Shown piece after piece: positions 1-36,041 of a stretch of 40,358 nucleotides of DNA. Position numbers and translations under genes: made by a program. The notes under the pieces were generated by a model. The model had not been told where the DNA came from and ran no database searches. It saw nothing but the letters and a program-made list of their open reading frames with translations. The stretch covers positions 1 to 40,358 of IMG/VR virus record IMGVR_UViG_2877953467_000003, one strand, 5' to 3'. The stretch comes from a virus (Duplodnaviria; Heunggongvirae; Uroviricota; Caudoviricetes). Position 1 is the stretch's first letter; every line of letters starts with the position of its first letter.

Positions 1-933
1 ATGGACAACGACAAAATTGATCAACACAGCGACGAAATTGAAGTTGAGAGCGAAGAAAAAGAGCGCGGCAAAAAAATAGAAATAGATGAAGACCGACTCC
101 CCTCCCGGGCGATGGCAATTCATGAGCATATCCGCCAGGATGGTGAAAAAGAGCTGGAACGCGACGCAATGGCGCTACTGTGGTCAGCCATTGCGGCGGG
201 TCTGTCGATGGGCGCTTCGTTACTGGCAAAAGGGATATTTCAAGTCGAACTGGAAGGTGTGCCGGGCAGCTTCTTGCTGGAGAATCTCGGTTATACCTTT
301 GGTTTTATTATCGTCATTATGGCCCGCCAGCAATTATTTACCGAAAATACCGTGACTGCGGTACTACCCGTCATGCAAAAACCGACAATGAGCAACGTCG
401 GCTTACTTATGCGATTATGGGGCGTCGTGCTGCTGGGTAATATTCTCGGGACAGGTATTGCTGCATGGGCATTTGAATATATGCCTATCTTCAATGAAGA
501 AACTCGCGATGCATTTGTCAAAATCGGCATGGATGTGATGAAGAACACCCCCAGCGAGATGTTTGCCAACGCGATCATTTCCGGCTGGCTGATCGCCACT
601 ATGGTTTGGATGTTTCCTGCTGCGGGTGCGGCAAAGATTGTGGTGATTATATTGATGACCTGGCTTATTGCACTGGGTGACACCACCCACATCGTTGTCG
701 GTTCTGTTGAAATCCTCTATCTGGTGTTTAACGGCACGCTGCACTGGAGCGATTTCATCTGGCCCTTCGCACTACCTACTTTAGCCGGGAACATCTGCGG
801 CGGCACCTTTATCTTCGCGTTAATGAGTCATGCACAGATTCGTAACGACATGAGCAACAAGCGTAAAGCAGAAGCACGCCAAAAAGCAGAACGTGCGGAA
901 AACATTAAGAAAAATGATAAAAACCCAGCATAA
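1..933 (+). CDS. yfdC: Formate/nitrite transporter family inner membrane protein YfdC
   Basis: 310 aa polytopic membrane protein recognised as E. coli YfdC; lies immediately upstream of argW as in K-12. Confidence 0.8.
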   Translation: MDNDKIDQHSDEIEVESEEKERGKKIEIDEDRLPSRAMAIHEHIRQDGEKELERDAMALLWSAIAAGLSMGASLLAKGIFQVELEGVPGSFLLENLGYTFGFIIVIMARQQLFTENTVTAVLPVMQKPTMSNVGLLMRLWGVVLLGNILGTGIAAWAFEYMPIFNEETRDAFVKIGMDVMKNTPSEMFANAIISGWLIATMVWMFPAAGAAKIVVIILMTWLIALGDTTHIVVGSVEILYLVFNGTLHWSDFIWPFALPTLAGNICGGTFIFALMSHAQIRNDMSNKRKAEARQKAERAENIKKNDKNPA

Positions 934-1008: not shown

Positions 1009-1083
1009 GTCCTCTTAGTTAAATGGATATAACGAGCCCCTCCTAAGGGCTAATTGCAGGTTCGATTCCTGCAGGGGACACCA
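1009..1083 (+). tRNA. argW: tRNA-Arg (anticodon CCU)
   Basis: 75 nt cloverleaf read from sequence: acceptor GTCCTCT/AGGGGAC, anticodon loop CTCCTAA, T-arm GCAGG-TTCGATT-CCTGC, 3' CCA. Confidence 0.9.
1069..1083 (+). repeat. attL core (15 bp direct repeat CTGCAGGGGACACCA at tRNA 3' end)
   Basis: Exact copy found again at 38655-38669; the two copies bracket all phage genes. Confidence 0.7.
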
Positions 1084-1244: not shown

Positions 1245-2402
1245 ATGCTCACCGTTAAGCAGATTGAAGCAGCAAAGCCGAAAGAAAAACCATACCGCCT
1301 TCTCGATGGTAATGGCCTATACCTTTATGTCCCTGTATCAGGGAAAAAGGTATGGCAGCTTCGCTACAAGATTGACGGTAAGGAGAAAATCCTGACTGTA
1401 GGAAAATATCCGCTAATGACTTTGCAGGAGGCAAGAGATAAAGCATGGACCGCGAGGAAAGACATCTCGGTTGGCATCGATCCGGTAAAAGCGAAAAAGG
1501 CTTCGTCTAAGAACAATTCCTTTAGTGCGATTTACAAGGAATGGTACGAGCACAAGAAGCAAGTCTGGTCAGTAGGCTATGCAACTGAACTTGCAAAAAT
1601 GTTTGATGACGACATTTTACCTATCATCGGCGGCCTTGAAATTCAGGATATTGAGCCGATGCAACTGCTGGAAGTAATCCGCAGATTTGAAGATCGCGGT
1701 GCAATGGAGCGAGCCAACAAAGCCCGCAGAAGATGCGGCGAGGTTTTCCGTTACGCTATTGTCACCGGAAGGGCTAAATATAACCCGGCACCTGACCTTG
1801 CTGACGCCATGAAGGGATACCGCAAGAAGAACTTCCCGTTTCTTCCTGCAGACCAGATCCCTGCATTCAACAAAGCACTGGCAACATTTTCAGGAAGCAT
1901 CGTATCGCTCATTGCGACCAAAGTTTTACGCTACACAGCCCTAAGAACGAAAGAGCTTCGTTCCATGCAATGGAAGAACGTCGATTTTGAAAACAGGATT
2001 ATCACTATCGACGCCAGTGTGATGAAGGGCCGCAAGATTCATGTTGTTCCTATGTCAGACCAGGTGGTTGAACTTCTCACTACGCTAAGCTCCATCACCA
2101 AACCAGTCTCAGAGTTTGTTTTTGCCGGGCGCAACGATAAGAAAAAGCCAATTTGCGAGAACGCGGTGCTACTTGTGATCAAACAAATCGGCTATGAGGG
2201 TCTGGAAAGCGGTCACGGATTCAGGCATGAATTCAGCACGATTATGAACGAGCACGAATGGCCTGCTGATGCTATTGAAGTGCAACTGGCACATGCCAAC
2301 GGCGGATCTGTGCGCGGGATTTACAACCATGCTCAGTATCTCGATAAACGCAGAGAAATGATGCAATGGTGGGCGGACTGGATTGATGAAAAGGTGGAGT
2401 GA
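1245..2402 (+). CDS. intS: Tyrosine-type phage integrase (KplE1/CPS-53 IntS-like)
   Basis: Adjacent to argW; N-terminus MLTVKQIEAAKPKEKPYRLLDGNGLYLYVP typical of P4/IntS-family integrases; ORF track gives 1209 as the earliest ATG, 1245 is the likely start. Confidence 0.88.
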   Translation: MLTVKQIEAAKPKEKPYRLLDGNGLYLYVPVSGKKVWQLRYKIDGKEKILTVGKYPLMTLQEARDKAWTARKDISVGIDPVKAKKASSKNNSFSAIYKEWYEHKKQVWSVGYATELAKMFDDDILPIIGGLEIQDIEPMQLLEVIRRFEDRGAMERANKARRRCGEVFRYAIVTGRAKYNPAPDLADAMKGYRKKNFPFLPADQIPAFNKALATFSGSIVSLIATKVLRYTALRTKELRSMQWKNVDFENRIITIDASVMKGRKIHVVPMSDQVVELLTTLSSITKPVSEFVFAGRNDKKKPICENAVLLVIKQIGYEGLESGHGFRHEFSTIMNEHEWPADAIEVQLAHANGGSVRGIYNHAQYLDKRREMMQWWADWIDEKVE

Positions 2403-22273: not shown

Positions 22274-22723
22274 TTATTTTAAGCACTGAGTCCTAATGTA
22301 CTCCTGCAGGTAGTTAACCTGCGCGGTTATCCTGTCGATTCCACTTCGGAGACGGTAATAATTGAGTTCAGCATCTGCTGTAAGTCCTGGGCTTTCTCCA
22401 TCGCCCATGCCGCTGGCTCCGGTCGTTGACTTTGCACAGGTGGCGGCGACTTGCAGGCGCTTACGACCAGCAGAAACATCAGCACGGAGACTTTCGATAG
22501 TCGCGTTAGCATCAGCAAGCTCCTTTGTATATCTGGCATCGAGTTCTGCTACATCATGTTGACGCTTCTGCATGTCAGCGATTGTGGATGTGGCCTTATC
22601 GCGCTGCTCTTTGTAGGTAATGGCGTTATCACGGTAATGATTAACCGCCCATGACAGGCAGACGATGATGCAGATAACCAGAGCGGAGATAATCGCGGTT
22701 ACTCTGTTCATTGCTGACCCCAC
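22274..22723 (-). CDS. i-spanin Rz
   Basis: 149 aa with N-terminal transmembrane helix and coiled-coil periplasmic domain; follows the endolysin. Confidence 0.75.
22327..22512 (-). CDS. o-spanin Rz1 lipoprotein, embedded in Rz in an alternate frame
   Basis: Embedded ORF with lipobox (LLVVSAC) and proline-rich mature region [16 protein letters not shown], as in lambda Rz1. Confidence 0.65.
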
Positions 22724-23205
22724 AAACAGATTTCACGCTCAATCTCACGACGAGTCATCAGGCCTTTCCATTGCTTACCGCCAGCGTATATCCAGCGACG
22801 TAGCTGGTCACATGCGCCTTTGATATCGCCCTGGTTTATTTTGCGAAGAAGCGTCGATGTTCTGAAATTGCCAGCACCCACGTTGTAGACGAACGAGTAA
22901 AGAGCGCCGCGCGTTGTTTCCGGTATATCGACTTTGATGTACGGGTTAATTTGTCTGGCAACCGTGGCAAGGTCTTTATTCAGGAGGGCTTTGCATTCTG
23001 CTTCGGTATACGTTTTACCGAGCATGATGTCTTTTCCGGTGTGTCCGTGACATACAGTCCATACGCCAACGATATCTTTGTATGGTATGTAGCTGACGCC
23101 TTCCAGACCATCGTTACCACTTGGGCCAGTGATTAACACAGATGCTATAGCAATAGCCCCGCCACCAATAGCCGCAGCAACGGCTTTTCGTAATGATGGA
23201 GGCAT
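22708..23205 (-). CDS. SAR endolysin (T4-lysozyme-like, phage 21 R-type)
   Basis: 165 aa; N-terminal Gly/Ala-rich signal-anchor-release helix followed by lysozyme domain. Confidence 0.85.
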
Positions 23206-23420
23206 TATTCACCTCTCGCAGCCTTTCTTCTGTCTTCTCTGATTTTGAAGTACAGATTTGTCAGATAGGTGAGAAAGCCCAACACAAGGCTTCCAAGCAC
23301 CCCAATCGCAGCCCACTGTGATGGACTGACCTGATCCAACCACTGCAAAAACCAGTATCCCGCACTACCAGCGGATGTTCCGTAGGCAATGCCAGTTGAG
23401 ATTTTGTCCATTGATTTCAT
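23205..23420 (-). CDS. Pinholin (phage 21 S21-type)
   Basis: 71 aa, two TM segments, begins [10 protein letters not shown] with dual-start motif; recognised as S21 pinholin. Confidence 0.85.
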
Positions 23421-23538
23421 AGCAACGCCTCCGCCAGTAACGGATTGCGTAGTTCTTATATTGGGAAGGGAGAAAAAGAAGACCGCAGCATAACTATCAC
23501 TGATGAATTCAGGACATCCAGTGGCTACGGCTCAGTTA

Positions 23539-23614
23539 TGGTGCTGGTTAACGGACTTGAACCGCTACCCATTCGCTTACAAGGCGACCGCTCTACCATT
23601 GGAGCTAAACCAGC
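23539..23614 (-). tRNA. Phage-encoded tRNA, anticodon UGU (Thr-like)
   Basis: Hand-folded 76 nt cloverleaf on minus strand: perfect acceptor GCTGGTT/AACCAGC, anticodon loop CUUGUAA, T-loop TTCAAGT, CCA end; one mismatch in anticodon stem. Confidence 0.55.
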
Positions 23615-23619
23615 ATATT

Positions 23620-23694
23620 TGGCGGGACAGCGTGGACTCGAACCACGATAAGAAGGTTAACAGCCTTCCGTAATGACCTTTATACGACTGACCC
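23620..23694 (-). tRNA. Phage-encoded tRNA, anticodon GUU (Asn-like)
   Basis: Hand-folded 75 nt cloverleaf: anticodon stem GAAGG/CCTTC, loop CUGUUAA, T-arm CGTGG-TTCGAGT-CCACG, CCA end; acceptor stem has one U-U mismatch. Confidence 0.5.
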
Positions 23695-23785
23695 AAATAA
23701 AAAAAGCCACCGTTGCAACTTAAGAGTCACTAACGGCAGCTTATGCGAATAGTGTTGCTCATTTGCTCAATGATGTCAACACGTT

Positions 23786-24274
23786 CTATGCTACATGTTT
23801 AATTTTCTCTACACGTTTCCGGTTTTTAAACGCACTATCCAGAACCGGGTAAATCATAAACAACGAGGCATTGAGGATTTCGTCAACTTCCCGTCGACAG
23901 GTTGCGAGCGATGGTTTTTGAATGCGCCCGCCGCCCCGGCATAACATCTTGCGAGGTCTTGCGACGCGATGATAGTAAGATGCAATGGCGTGCTTGGAAG
24001 AGCCGTGGGCGTAGTAGCTGAGGAGGATGCCAAAGGCTTTCTTGTCAATGTACATGACGGAATCGACGACCTGAGAAATCAACATTCCATCATCATCATT
24101 ACACATTGGCCTTGTCATAACTCTTCCCGGCTCTACGCTCTCCATGAACTTCGCTATTACGCTGCTCATGCGCTTTTCCAGACGACCTGAATAAACCCAT
24201 GCGCCCCACAGTTCAAGCCAGCCATTCAGCCACTCATGCTGTTCTTTGGTGAGGTTTAGTTCTCTTATGCCCAC
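23786..24274 (-). CDS. Q: Late gene antiterminator Q
   Basis: 162 aa Cys-containing protein between nin region and tRNA/lysis genes. Confidence 0.7.
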
Positions 24275-34183: not shown

Positions 34184-34732
34184 TAAAACCAACATAAGGA
34201 ACCACCCATGATTTACGCAATCGCGGGAGGCGCTCGCATGGGTGCCTTCCAACTAAATGAATCTTTACTTGAACGAATCACCCGTAAATTACGTGACGGA
34301 TGGAAAAGAGTTGAGGTCTTATTATGCGCAATGAAATAGCCATCAATCACCAGATGCTTCGTGCTGCACAGAACAAAGCAGTAATAGCCCGATTTATTGG
34401 TGATTCAAAAATGTGGCTTGAAGCAAATAAAGCGATGAAATCAGCTATCAACCTTCCGTGGTATCGCAGGAAATGAGTTTTACAGATAACTGGCCAGACG
34501 AAGAATTCATTCGTCAGATGAAAGAATTAATCGGTAACGAAGGAGATATTCATGTCACTTGCAACCACAGTGAAGGAGAGCAAGTTACAGAGACGCATGT
34601 ACACGCAGAAAGCTCTCTGGTATCGCCATAATGGCGACCGCGAAGGAATGCGGGTATGCCTTAATTTGTCCCGAGTCGAAGTATTAAATCAGCGTTATTT
34701 CCTTGGGCCATGTCCATTCTGAGAACAAACAT

Positions 34733-35338
34733 ATGAGCAAAGAATTTTACGCAAGACTGGCAGCTATTCAGGAGAATCTGAACGCGCCAAAGAATCAGTA
34801 CAACTCATTCGGTAAATATAAATACAGAAGCTGCGAAGACATTCTTGAAGGCGTTAAGCCGTTACTGAATGGCCTGTTTTTATCAATCAGCGATGAAGTT
34901 GTGTTGATTGGTGATCGGTATTATGTGAAAGCCACGGCAACTATTACCGATGGCGAAAACAGTCATACGGCAACCGCTCTTGCACGAGAGGAAGAAAGCA
35001 AGAAAGGAATGGATTCTGCACAAGTTACGGGAGCCACAAGCTCTTATGCACGCAAGTATTGCCTCAATGGTTTGTTCGGCATTGATGATGCGAAAGATGC
35101 AGATACCGACGAGCATAAACATCAGCAGAACGCAGCAGCAAAGCAATCAAAACCATCACCTACACCTGAACAGGTTCTAAAAGCATTCACTGACGCAGCA
35201 TTGCAGAAAAACACCGTGGAAGAGCTTAAACAGGCGTTCGCCAAAGCGTGGAAGATGCTCGAAGGCACACCGGAGCAGCACAAAGCGCAGGACGTTTACA
35301 ACATCAGACGAGACGAATTAGAAGGAGCTGCTGCTTAA
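34733..35338 (+). CDS. erf: ERF-family single-strand annealing protein
   Basis: MSKEFYARLAAIQENLNAPKNQYNSFGKYKYRSCEDILEGVKP recognised as P22 Erf-like; precedes SSB. Confidence 0.75.
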   Translation: MSKEFYARLAAIQENLNAPKNQYNSFGKYKYRSCEDILEGVKPLLNGLFLSISDEVVLIGDRYYVKATATITDGENSHTATALAREEESKKGMDSAQVTGATSSYARKYCLNGLFGIDDAKDADTDEHKHQQNAAAKQSKPSPTPEQVLKAFTDAALQKNTVEELKQAFAKAWKMLEGTPEQHKAQDVYNIRRDELEGAAA

Positions 35339-35721
35339 TGGCACATTCGATTACTGTAAGACTAAACAAGCCCGCAAGAGAGTTTCAGGACGGGGAAAAT
35401 ATCGGATTCAACATCCGTGCTGGCGTTCAGTATTACGATCGCCAGACAAAAAAGAAAGAATGGACAAACTACAGCGCCGTTGTATTTGCCAAGCCGGGAG
35501 CGCAAGCGGATTACTACCGTAGTGTTCTTGTTGAAGGTGGCATTGTAGAAATTACCGGAGAAAACATCAGGGTTGATGTTTATCAGGGGCAAAATGGTCA
35601 ATCAATCACTCTTGAATTACTGAATGCAAAGATTGGATTTGCAACTTCAGGAAACAGCCAACAGCAGCAAAGTAGCAATCATCAAAATCATCCTGAATAC
35701 GACGATTCAATTCCCTTCTAA
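35338..35721 (+). CDS. ssb: Single-stranded DNA-binding protein (SSB-like)
   Basis: 127 aa; start overlaps erf stop (TAATG); ends with acidic tail DDSIPF like the SSB C-terminal DDDIPF motif. Confidence 0.6.
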   Translation: MAHSITVRLNKPAREFQDGENIGFNIRAGVQYYDRQTKKKEWTNYSAVVFAKPGAQADYYRSVLVEGGIVEITGENIRVDVYQGQNGQSITLELLNAKIGFATSGNSQQQQSSNHQNHPEYDDSIPF

Positions 35722-35744: not shown

Positions 35745-36041
35745 ATGCCAGCGCCTCTGTATGGTGCGGATGACCCACGCCGCTGTTCCGGCAATTCCGT
35801 ATCGGAAGTGCTGGATAAATTCAGAAAAAACTACGACCTGATAATGTCGCTACCGCAGGAAACGAAAGAGGAAAAGGAATTTCGCCATTGTATATGGCTT
35901 GCAGAGAAAGAAGAACGCGAGCGAATTTACCAGACATCAATCCGACCATTCCGCAAAGCCACATATACCCACTTCCCTGAATATATCGACCCGCGCCTGC
36001 GTAATTACCGCTCACGCTATGGCGCTATCAGTAATGACTGA
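35745..36041 (+). CDS. Hypothetical early protein (possibly Abc2-like anti-RecBCD; unverified)
   Basis: 98 aa ORF following erf/ssb; assignment rests on position and vague recall only. Confidence 0.4.

Follow-up and report, generated by a model that had tools for sequence, protein, structure and literature searches.

Why does a temperate phage carry two tRNA genes at the head of its late operon, just in front of its lysis genes, and why is the acceptor stem of one of them interrupted by a U-U mismatch? The question was raised by a stretch of viral DNA of 40,358 nucleotides, analysed here over its whole length and referred to as the window. In a preliminary description, two cloverleafs had been folded by hand on its minus strand, one Thr-like with the anticodon UGU and a perfect acceptor stem, the other Asn-like with the anticodon GUU and the mismatched stem, and the latter had been proposed to be either degenerate or specialised.

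The tRNA pair is an already-known feature and nothing new in itself. The SfI genome paper (2013) reported exactly these two genes, found by tRNAscan-SE, noted them also in Sf6, ST64T, PS3 and phage 21, and cited earlier work on the pair in phage 21 and Sf6. Annotations of the pair are likewise present in SfI (JX509734), where it stands right behind tR' and ahead of the holin gene, and in Sf6 (AF547987) and BTP1. A literature search joining tRNA-Asn, tRNA-Thr and lambdoid phages returned no paper, and the tRNA-Thr of phage 21 was mentioned solely by Govande et al. What concerns us here is the function of the two genes.

Results

The window was a mosaic lambdoid prophage at argW (Table 1), with late genes resembling those of SfI and SfIV and an early region resembling that of Sf6. 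Positions 1-2402 matched E. coli strain PE15 with an identity of 99.6%, and the integrase gene adjoined the tail-fibre end of the late operon and not the early-left genes. Over the 401 bp around the tRNA genes, phage SfI showed an identity of 99.8% and phage 21 one of 97.8%. The tRNA pair was carried by 92 phage records and by 369 of 5426 complete E. coli genomes (about 7%), where the genes are annotated as tRNA-Thr and tRNA-Asn; a scan of one genome per bacterial species gave six matches only and did not increase the diversity.

Table 1. Features of the window, with the late leader and its neighbours in the order of late transcription
Feature	Position	Strand	Remarks
yfdC	1-933		window left end
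argW tRNA-Arg(CCU)	1009-1083	+	ARAGORN
intS-type integrase	1245-2402	+	prophage at argW
phage-21-type antiterminator Q	23786-24274	-	ORF list; annotated Q in SfI and phage 21
late promoter pR'	23744-23779	-	-35 TTGACA at 23774-23779; coordinates transferred from phage 21 annotation
Q21-binding element	23756-23771	-	transferred from phage 21 annotation
transcription start	near 23744	-	transferred from phage 21 annotation
late-leader terminator tR'	23695-23742	-	hairpin then UUUUUUUAUUU; same as phage 21 terminator (PMID 1704887)
tRNA-Asn(GUU)	23620-23694	-	75 nt, CCA encoded; ARAGORN, Rfam RF00005, covariation of homologues
tRNA-Thr(UGU)	23539-23614	-	76 nt, CCA encoded; ARAGORN, Rfam RF00005, alignments, family analysis
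hairpin then CUUCUUUUUCU	23465-23538	-	between tRNA-Thr and holin ribosome-binding site; fold and conservation
S21-type pinholin	23205-23420	-	ORF; phage 21 homologue annotation
SAR endolysin	22708-23205	-	ORF; phage 21 homologue annotation
spanin	22274-22723	-	ORF; phage 21 homologue annotation
Erf-like annealing protein	34703-35338	+
SSB	35248-35721	+
Abc2 anti-RecBCD protein	35745-36041	+

ARAGORN called three tRNA genes only in the window, the host tRNA-Arg(CCU) at argW and the two phage genes. Both phage calls had the coordinates and anticodons assigned by hand folding, and Rfam gave the same ones. Both genes matched the RF00005 model over its full length (1-71), tRNA-Thr with 61.2 bits and tRNA-Asn with 55.3 bits. 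Since these scores lie far above the gathering score of 29 and correspond to E-values of 5e-11 and 2e-9, respectively, over the 40-kb window, neither tRNA is a chance match. A spacer of 5 nt separates them. The acceptor stem of tRNA-Thr (GCUGGUU/AACCAGC) was paired at all positions, and in that of tRNA-Asn (GGGUCAG/CUGUCCC) U4·U69 was the sole non-standard pair; the cmscan alignment and our reading of the sequence agreed on both points with what had been described. The alignment also marked U13·U22 in tRNA-Asn and G27·A43 in the anticodon stem of tRNA-Thr.

The tRNA-Asn had an anticodon stem GAAGG/CCUUC, a 7-nt anticodon loop reading CU-GUU-AA, a variable loop of 4 nt, the discriminator G73 and a 3' end reading CUGUCCC-G-CCA. 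The anticodon stem of tRNA-Thr (GUCGC/GCGAA) combined the G27·A43 mismatch with U28-A42 and C29-G41, and its discriminator was A73. The identity set of E. coli AsnRS consists of the anticodon bases G34, U35 and U36 and the discriminator G73, that of ThrRS of G1-C72, C2-G71, G35 and U36. All of these elements were legible in the respective window tRNA, and both tRNAs are predicted to be charged with the cognate amino acid.

The two genes occupied the site between Q and the lysis genes, as had been noted, with the lysis cassette (22274-23420, minus strand) downstream of both. The phage 21 record (OL657228) gives the order Q, pR' (with -35, -10, Q-binding and pause elements), transcription start, tR', tRNA-Asn, tRNA-Thr, pinholin, SAR endolysin and spanin, and there the annotation of pR', the Q-binding element and tR' stems from experiments. 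The window and phage 21 were the same over alignment columns 1-100, from pR' through tR'. With these three elements matching base for base, the earlier placement of the tRNAs inside the late transcription unit proved correct. The order of the genes, the 5-nt spacer and the slot right after tR' and before the holin gene were also those of phage 21, and the only changes in the pair were A26G in tRNA-Thr (G26 in the window) and one base of the spacer. The window tRNA-Asn was identical to the copies of phage 21, Sf6 and SfI, and the window tRNA-Thr to that of SfI. The surrounding phage, by its mosaic late and early regions, differs from phage 21.

The U-tract of tR' terminated at the first base of tRNA-Asn. 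A simple promoter and terminator scan of 23300-23900 called nothing, as the tR' hairpin has an inner stem and goes beyond the loop limit of the scan; the call was nevertheless settled by folding (-20.2 kcal/mol, z = -5.0, with none of 200 shuffles as stable) and by the phage 21 annotation. On the other side of the pair, the hairpin downstream of tRNA-Thr folded with -19.8 kcal/mol (z = -2.5). It carries no annotation in the phage 21 record, and a permissive Rfam search of 23380-23800 found the two tRNAs only and no family covering the hairpin. Sf6 and P22-like phages, though unlike the window in their Q and lysis genes, have conserved it as well, and it may represent either a site of processing or a further terminator. 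In Sf6 and many P22-like phages the homology was limited to window positions 23477-23743, that is tR', both tRNAs and about 60 nt including the hairpin. Since it is common to phages with other Q and lysis genes, this block acts as a mobile module.

For the tRNA-Thr, a role has been reported for a nearly identical allele. Govande et al. (2025, PMC12445682) found that lambda is blocked by OLD, a protein of the P2 prophage, which cleaves host tRNA-ThrU(UGU), the only host tRNA with a UGU anticodon. The cuts fall after C28 and after C40, in a paired CNG motif, and the anticodon arm is lost. Phage Thr(UGU) tRNAs rescued cells from P2-OLD, whereas extra host ThrU protected them hardly or not at all (PMC12445682). 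The tRNA-Thr of phage 21, tested by name, protected the cells and resisted cleavage in vitro. Resistance was ascribed to two features in combination, a shortening of the anticodon stem and altered base pairs where the cuts are made, C28U/G42A in phage 21, and ThrU with a changed 28:42 pair alone did not protect (PMC12445682).

The window tRNA-Thr shares with these rescue tRNAs the UGU anticodon, the shortened anticodon stem and the altered C28-G42 pair. It thus has both published resistance features, G27·A43 shortening the stem and U28-A42 replacing the motif, next to C29-G41, and judged by them it is probably resistant to P2-OLD. The allele tested by Govande et al. was the A26 allele of phage 21 expressed from a plasmid promoter, whereas that of the window is a G26 allele in a late operon. 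The tRNA-Thr family that we collected comprised 138 copies with 24 distinct sequences. G27·A43, U28-A42 and C29-G41 were invariant in all 24, while the acceptor and T stems covaried, with changes on both sides of pairs 3:70, 5:68, 6:67, 49:65 and 51:63; the covariation score was 0.159 as compared to 0.082 in shuffles, and 0 of 500 shuffles reached it. An invariant anticodon arm beside covarying stems is the pattern expected from selection on a resistance determinant.

One viral contig (L100, 1279-1512) carried a chimeric tRNA-Thr with a 5' half of the phage type and a 3' half, including the anticodon arm, identical to that of host thrU. A glyT-like tRNA-Gly(UCC) lay 3 nt beyond it, and the arrangement suggests recombination of the phage module with the host thrU-tyrU-glyT-thrT operon.

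The family of the tRNA-Asn, gathered in two scans of viral contigs, comprised 169 copies and 27 distinct sequences. Position pair 4:69 was U·U in 164 of the copies, U·C in three, U·G in one and G·U in one; a Watson-Crick pair occurred in none. There were three versions of the acceptor stem, GGGUCAG/CUGUCCC, GGGUCGA/UCGUCCC and GGGUAGG/CCUUCCC, which differed by compensatory changes at 5:68, 6:67 and 7:66 and all contained U4·U69. Across the 27 distinct sequences, five stem pairs showed compensatory changes and 7 pairs changed on both sides, and the covariation score of 0.229 (0.080 in shuffles) was reached by none of 500 shuffles. Since U4·U69 was kept in 164 of 169 copies while the neighbouring pairs covaried, it is an old retained feature and not decay. 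More distant phage tRNA-Asn genes, located in large tRNA arrays, had the same D-arm and an ordinary U4-A69. Similar D-arms and 4-nt variable loops led us to consider whether the tRNA-Asn had arisen from a glyT-like body of the host; the idea was dropped, as many phage tRNA-Asn genes whose acceptor stem resembles that of host Asn share this D-arm.

Of 165 loci with this type of tRNA-Asn, 140 had a Thr(UGU) gene behind it. The slot after tR' gathers variable tRNA cargo, since related phages carry different tRNA sets behind this tRNA-Asn. Among loci L133-L207, the same type headed arrays of Asn-Phe-Thr(UGU)-Arg(UCU), some of which also had Gly(UCC), and the sets Asn-Gly and Asn-Met. A variant in Phytobacter sp. 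(locus L130, 7330-7404) had the acceptor stem of the window and C28-G42, not A28-U42.

With respect to host asnT, the anticodon stem of the window tRNA-Asn was changed at 28:42 (C-G to A-U), 29:41 (G-C to A-U) and 31:39 (A-U to G-C) and still had its full 5 bp. As a candidate for nuclease resistance, it has A28-U42 and A29-U41 and has thus lost both motifs; C40, however, is kept, and 12 of the 27 distinct relatives have C28-G42, for which reason loss of this pair was rejected as a family-wide signature of the tRNA-Asn. Positions 36-41 read UAAUCC in the host and UAACCU in the phage tRNA-Asn, and UAAUCA in the host and UAAGCG in the phage tRNA-Thr. Compared with the host targets, both window tRNAs therefore carried substitutions at 39 and 41.

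Discussion

We consider it probable that both genes are functional phage tRNA genes at the start of the late operon, the tRNA-Thr being resistant to cleavage and the tRNA-Asn possibly so as well. By analogy with the annotation of phage 21, transcription from pR' would halt at tR' unless the polymerase is modified by Q. Since tR' would stop transcription without Q, the tRNAs would be made mainly in the lytic late phase. Q-modified RNA polymerase would run past tR' and transcribe the tRNAs together with the late genes, and host tRNA-processing enzymes would excise both tRNAs from the late transcript; according to the phage L paper, which deals with the same slot, it is not known whether such excision from the late mRNA takes place.

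Once made, the tRNA-Thr would act as a cleavage-resistant stand-in for ThrU, the sole host reader of ACA, as was shown for the near-identical allele of phage 21. ThrU is destroyed by OLD-family Toprim nucleases, mainly by P2-OLD and also by AriB of PARIS, and resistance would result from the stem shortened by G27·A43 together with the lost C28-G42 pair of the cleavage motif. Of the 21 late ORFs, 18 contained one or more ACA codons, and without ThrU the synthesis of almost every late protein would therefore stall. The phage may itself trigger the defence that its tRNA-Thr counters, since it encodes Abc2 and interference with RecBCD activates P2-OLD; Abc2 may thus be an activator of P2-OLD.

Can the same be said of the tRNA-Asn? 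Rescue by Thr tRNAs alone was partial, with the residual growth defect blamed on other cleaved tRNAs, and P2-OLD cut ThrU faster than a comparison set that included host tRNA-Asn(GUU) (PMC12445682). For AriB of PARIS the substrates are the tRNAs Lys(UUU), Thr(UGU) and Asn(GUU), which it cuts between positions 40 and 41 (Belukhina et al., PMC12409363). In tRNA-Lys the determinants are U39 and position 41, host tRNA-Asn(GUU) is a secondary target, and the T5 versions of the Lys, Thr and Asn tRNAs jointly neutralise PARIS (PMC12409363). The tRNAs of the window correspond to two of the three main AriB targets, the main target of P2-OLD among them. Most likely, then, the tRNA-Asn would stand in likewise for host tRNA-Asn(GUU), which these nucleases cut more slowly and as a secondary substrate, and the changed pairs 28:42, 29:41 and 31:39 of the phage tRNA lie around both cleavage sites. 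The pair together would keep the synthesis of late proteins going once such a defence has fired, and additional capacity for decoding ACA would be a possible side benefit.

Phage T5 (PMC12409363) offers a comparison. It has Thr and Asn tRNAs with the same two anticodons, and in both phages the changes with respect to the host lie at or around the 40|41 site. Its tRNA-Thr has G39 and U28, as does the window tRNA-Thr, and its tRNA-Asn has the G27·A43 mismatch seen in the window tRNA-Thr. An argument for shared function by homology was dropped, since in sequence the window pair is not closely related to the tRNAs of T5. T5 is moreover virulent, with some 24 tRNA genes under their own promoters, and supplies a tRNA-Lys, whereas the window does not. 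ARAGORN found no tRNA-Lys(UUU), the primary AriB target of the PARIS system studied, in the window, and the window phage could for this reason not neutralise the studied PARIS alone. A more far-reaching reading would be that the tRNA-Asn is a second counter-defence tRNA completing the partial rescue by the tRNA-Thr, that U4·U69 was selected to lower recognition by a tRNA-targeting nuclease or toxin, and that late-leader modules are anti-defence cassettes; this we put forward tentatively, as a possibility we would not yet favour. If such a defence struck early, tRNAs expressed late and under Q might no longer be of use.

An alternative would be that the tRNAs only raise the supply for ACA (Thr) and for AAC and AAU (Asn) codons, an explanation that is usual for a lambdoid phage with rare-codon tRNAs for Ile and Arg, thus other tRNA species, in the same slot between Q/pR' and the downstream late genes. 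Late genes were compared with the host, as the preliminary description had proposed. In the window (codons counted over 3600-39000), ACA accounted for 9.3 per 1000 codons in late and 14.2 per 1000 in early genes, and for 5.1 and 3.0 per 1000 in ordinary and ribosomal genes, respectively, of a single 50-kb sample of K-12. Frequency per 1000 was thus higher in the late genes than in the host, which would favour supplementation, whereas the share of ACA among Thr codons was about the same, 13% in late genes versus 11% in ordinary K-12 genes (5.5% in the ribosomal ones). With 30% of their Thr codons, it is the early genes that are rich in ACA, although the tRNA that reads it sits in the late operon, and they are transcribed ahead of the tRNAs. 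Since the genes co-expressed with the tRNAs have no unusual abundance of ACA, supplementation could account for the pair in part at best. Asn codons were only slightly commoner in the window than in the K-12 samples, and the host has four tRNA-Asn genes. The position of ThrU as sole host tRNA with a UGU anticodon speaks for supplementation, as do the ACA values of 17.3 for the phage and 7.1 for the host in the SfI paper, whose authors saw no codon bias for Asn; the phage L paper, on the other hand, counted AAC in 24 of the 25 Asn codons of the coat gene. Supplementation leaves unexplained the invariant and odd anticodon arm of the tRNA-Thr, and also why host ThrU gave little or no protection against P2-OLD. 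It is therefore unlikely that an increased supply is all that the two tRNAs provide.

Considerably less probable still is that the tRNA folds serve mainly as entry points for RNase P and RNase E, whose cuts would separate the tR' leader from the lysis mRNA and thereby determine where that mRNA starts and how stable it is. The U-tract of tR' adjoining the 5' end of tRNA-Asn, the conserved hairpin 3' of tRNA-Thr and the transfer of the whole block among phages as a single unit would all suit such a role. Lambda, however, functions without a tRNA at this position. P22 also works without one (phage L paper), and in other phages the same slot is filled by Asn-Gly, Asn-Leu or Asn-Phe-Thr-Arg. Conservation extends to the anticodons and the synthetase identity elements, for which a mere processing signal would have no use, and in a related phage tRNA-Thr anticodon mutations that preserve the fold abolish the benefit against P2-OLD (PMC12445682).

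That the mismatched tRNA-Asn is a decaying, non-functional passenger of a functional tRNA-Thr is scarcely credible: U4·U69 and U13·U22, a bit score below that of tRNA-Thr (55 versus 61) and the inability of the SfI authors to assign it a role may point this way, but its score is far over the gathering score, CCA is encoded, the anticodon loop is intact with GUU and G73 in place, five stem pairs are compensated over the distinct sequences with a covariation score matched in no shuffle, the mismatch is constant in three acceptor variants without drift, and the type is also found without a Thr partner, with Gly, Phe or Met or alone. Of the two options first offered for this tRNA, degeneration was hence not supported, in view of its 55 bits, its CCA, GUU and G73 and the covariation among 27 sequences, and specialisation is the better reading.

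Conclusion

The value of the pair lies in its being an example of a recent view, in which phage tRNAs replace host tRNAs destroyed by defence nucleases. As about 7% of complete E. coli genomes carry the pair, it could affect P2-type and PARIS-type defence against temperate phages in nature. If the counter-defence reading is true, temperate enterobacterial phages would carry their late-leader tRNA modules as anti-defence cassettes and not as aids to codon usage.
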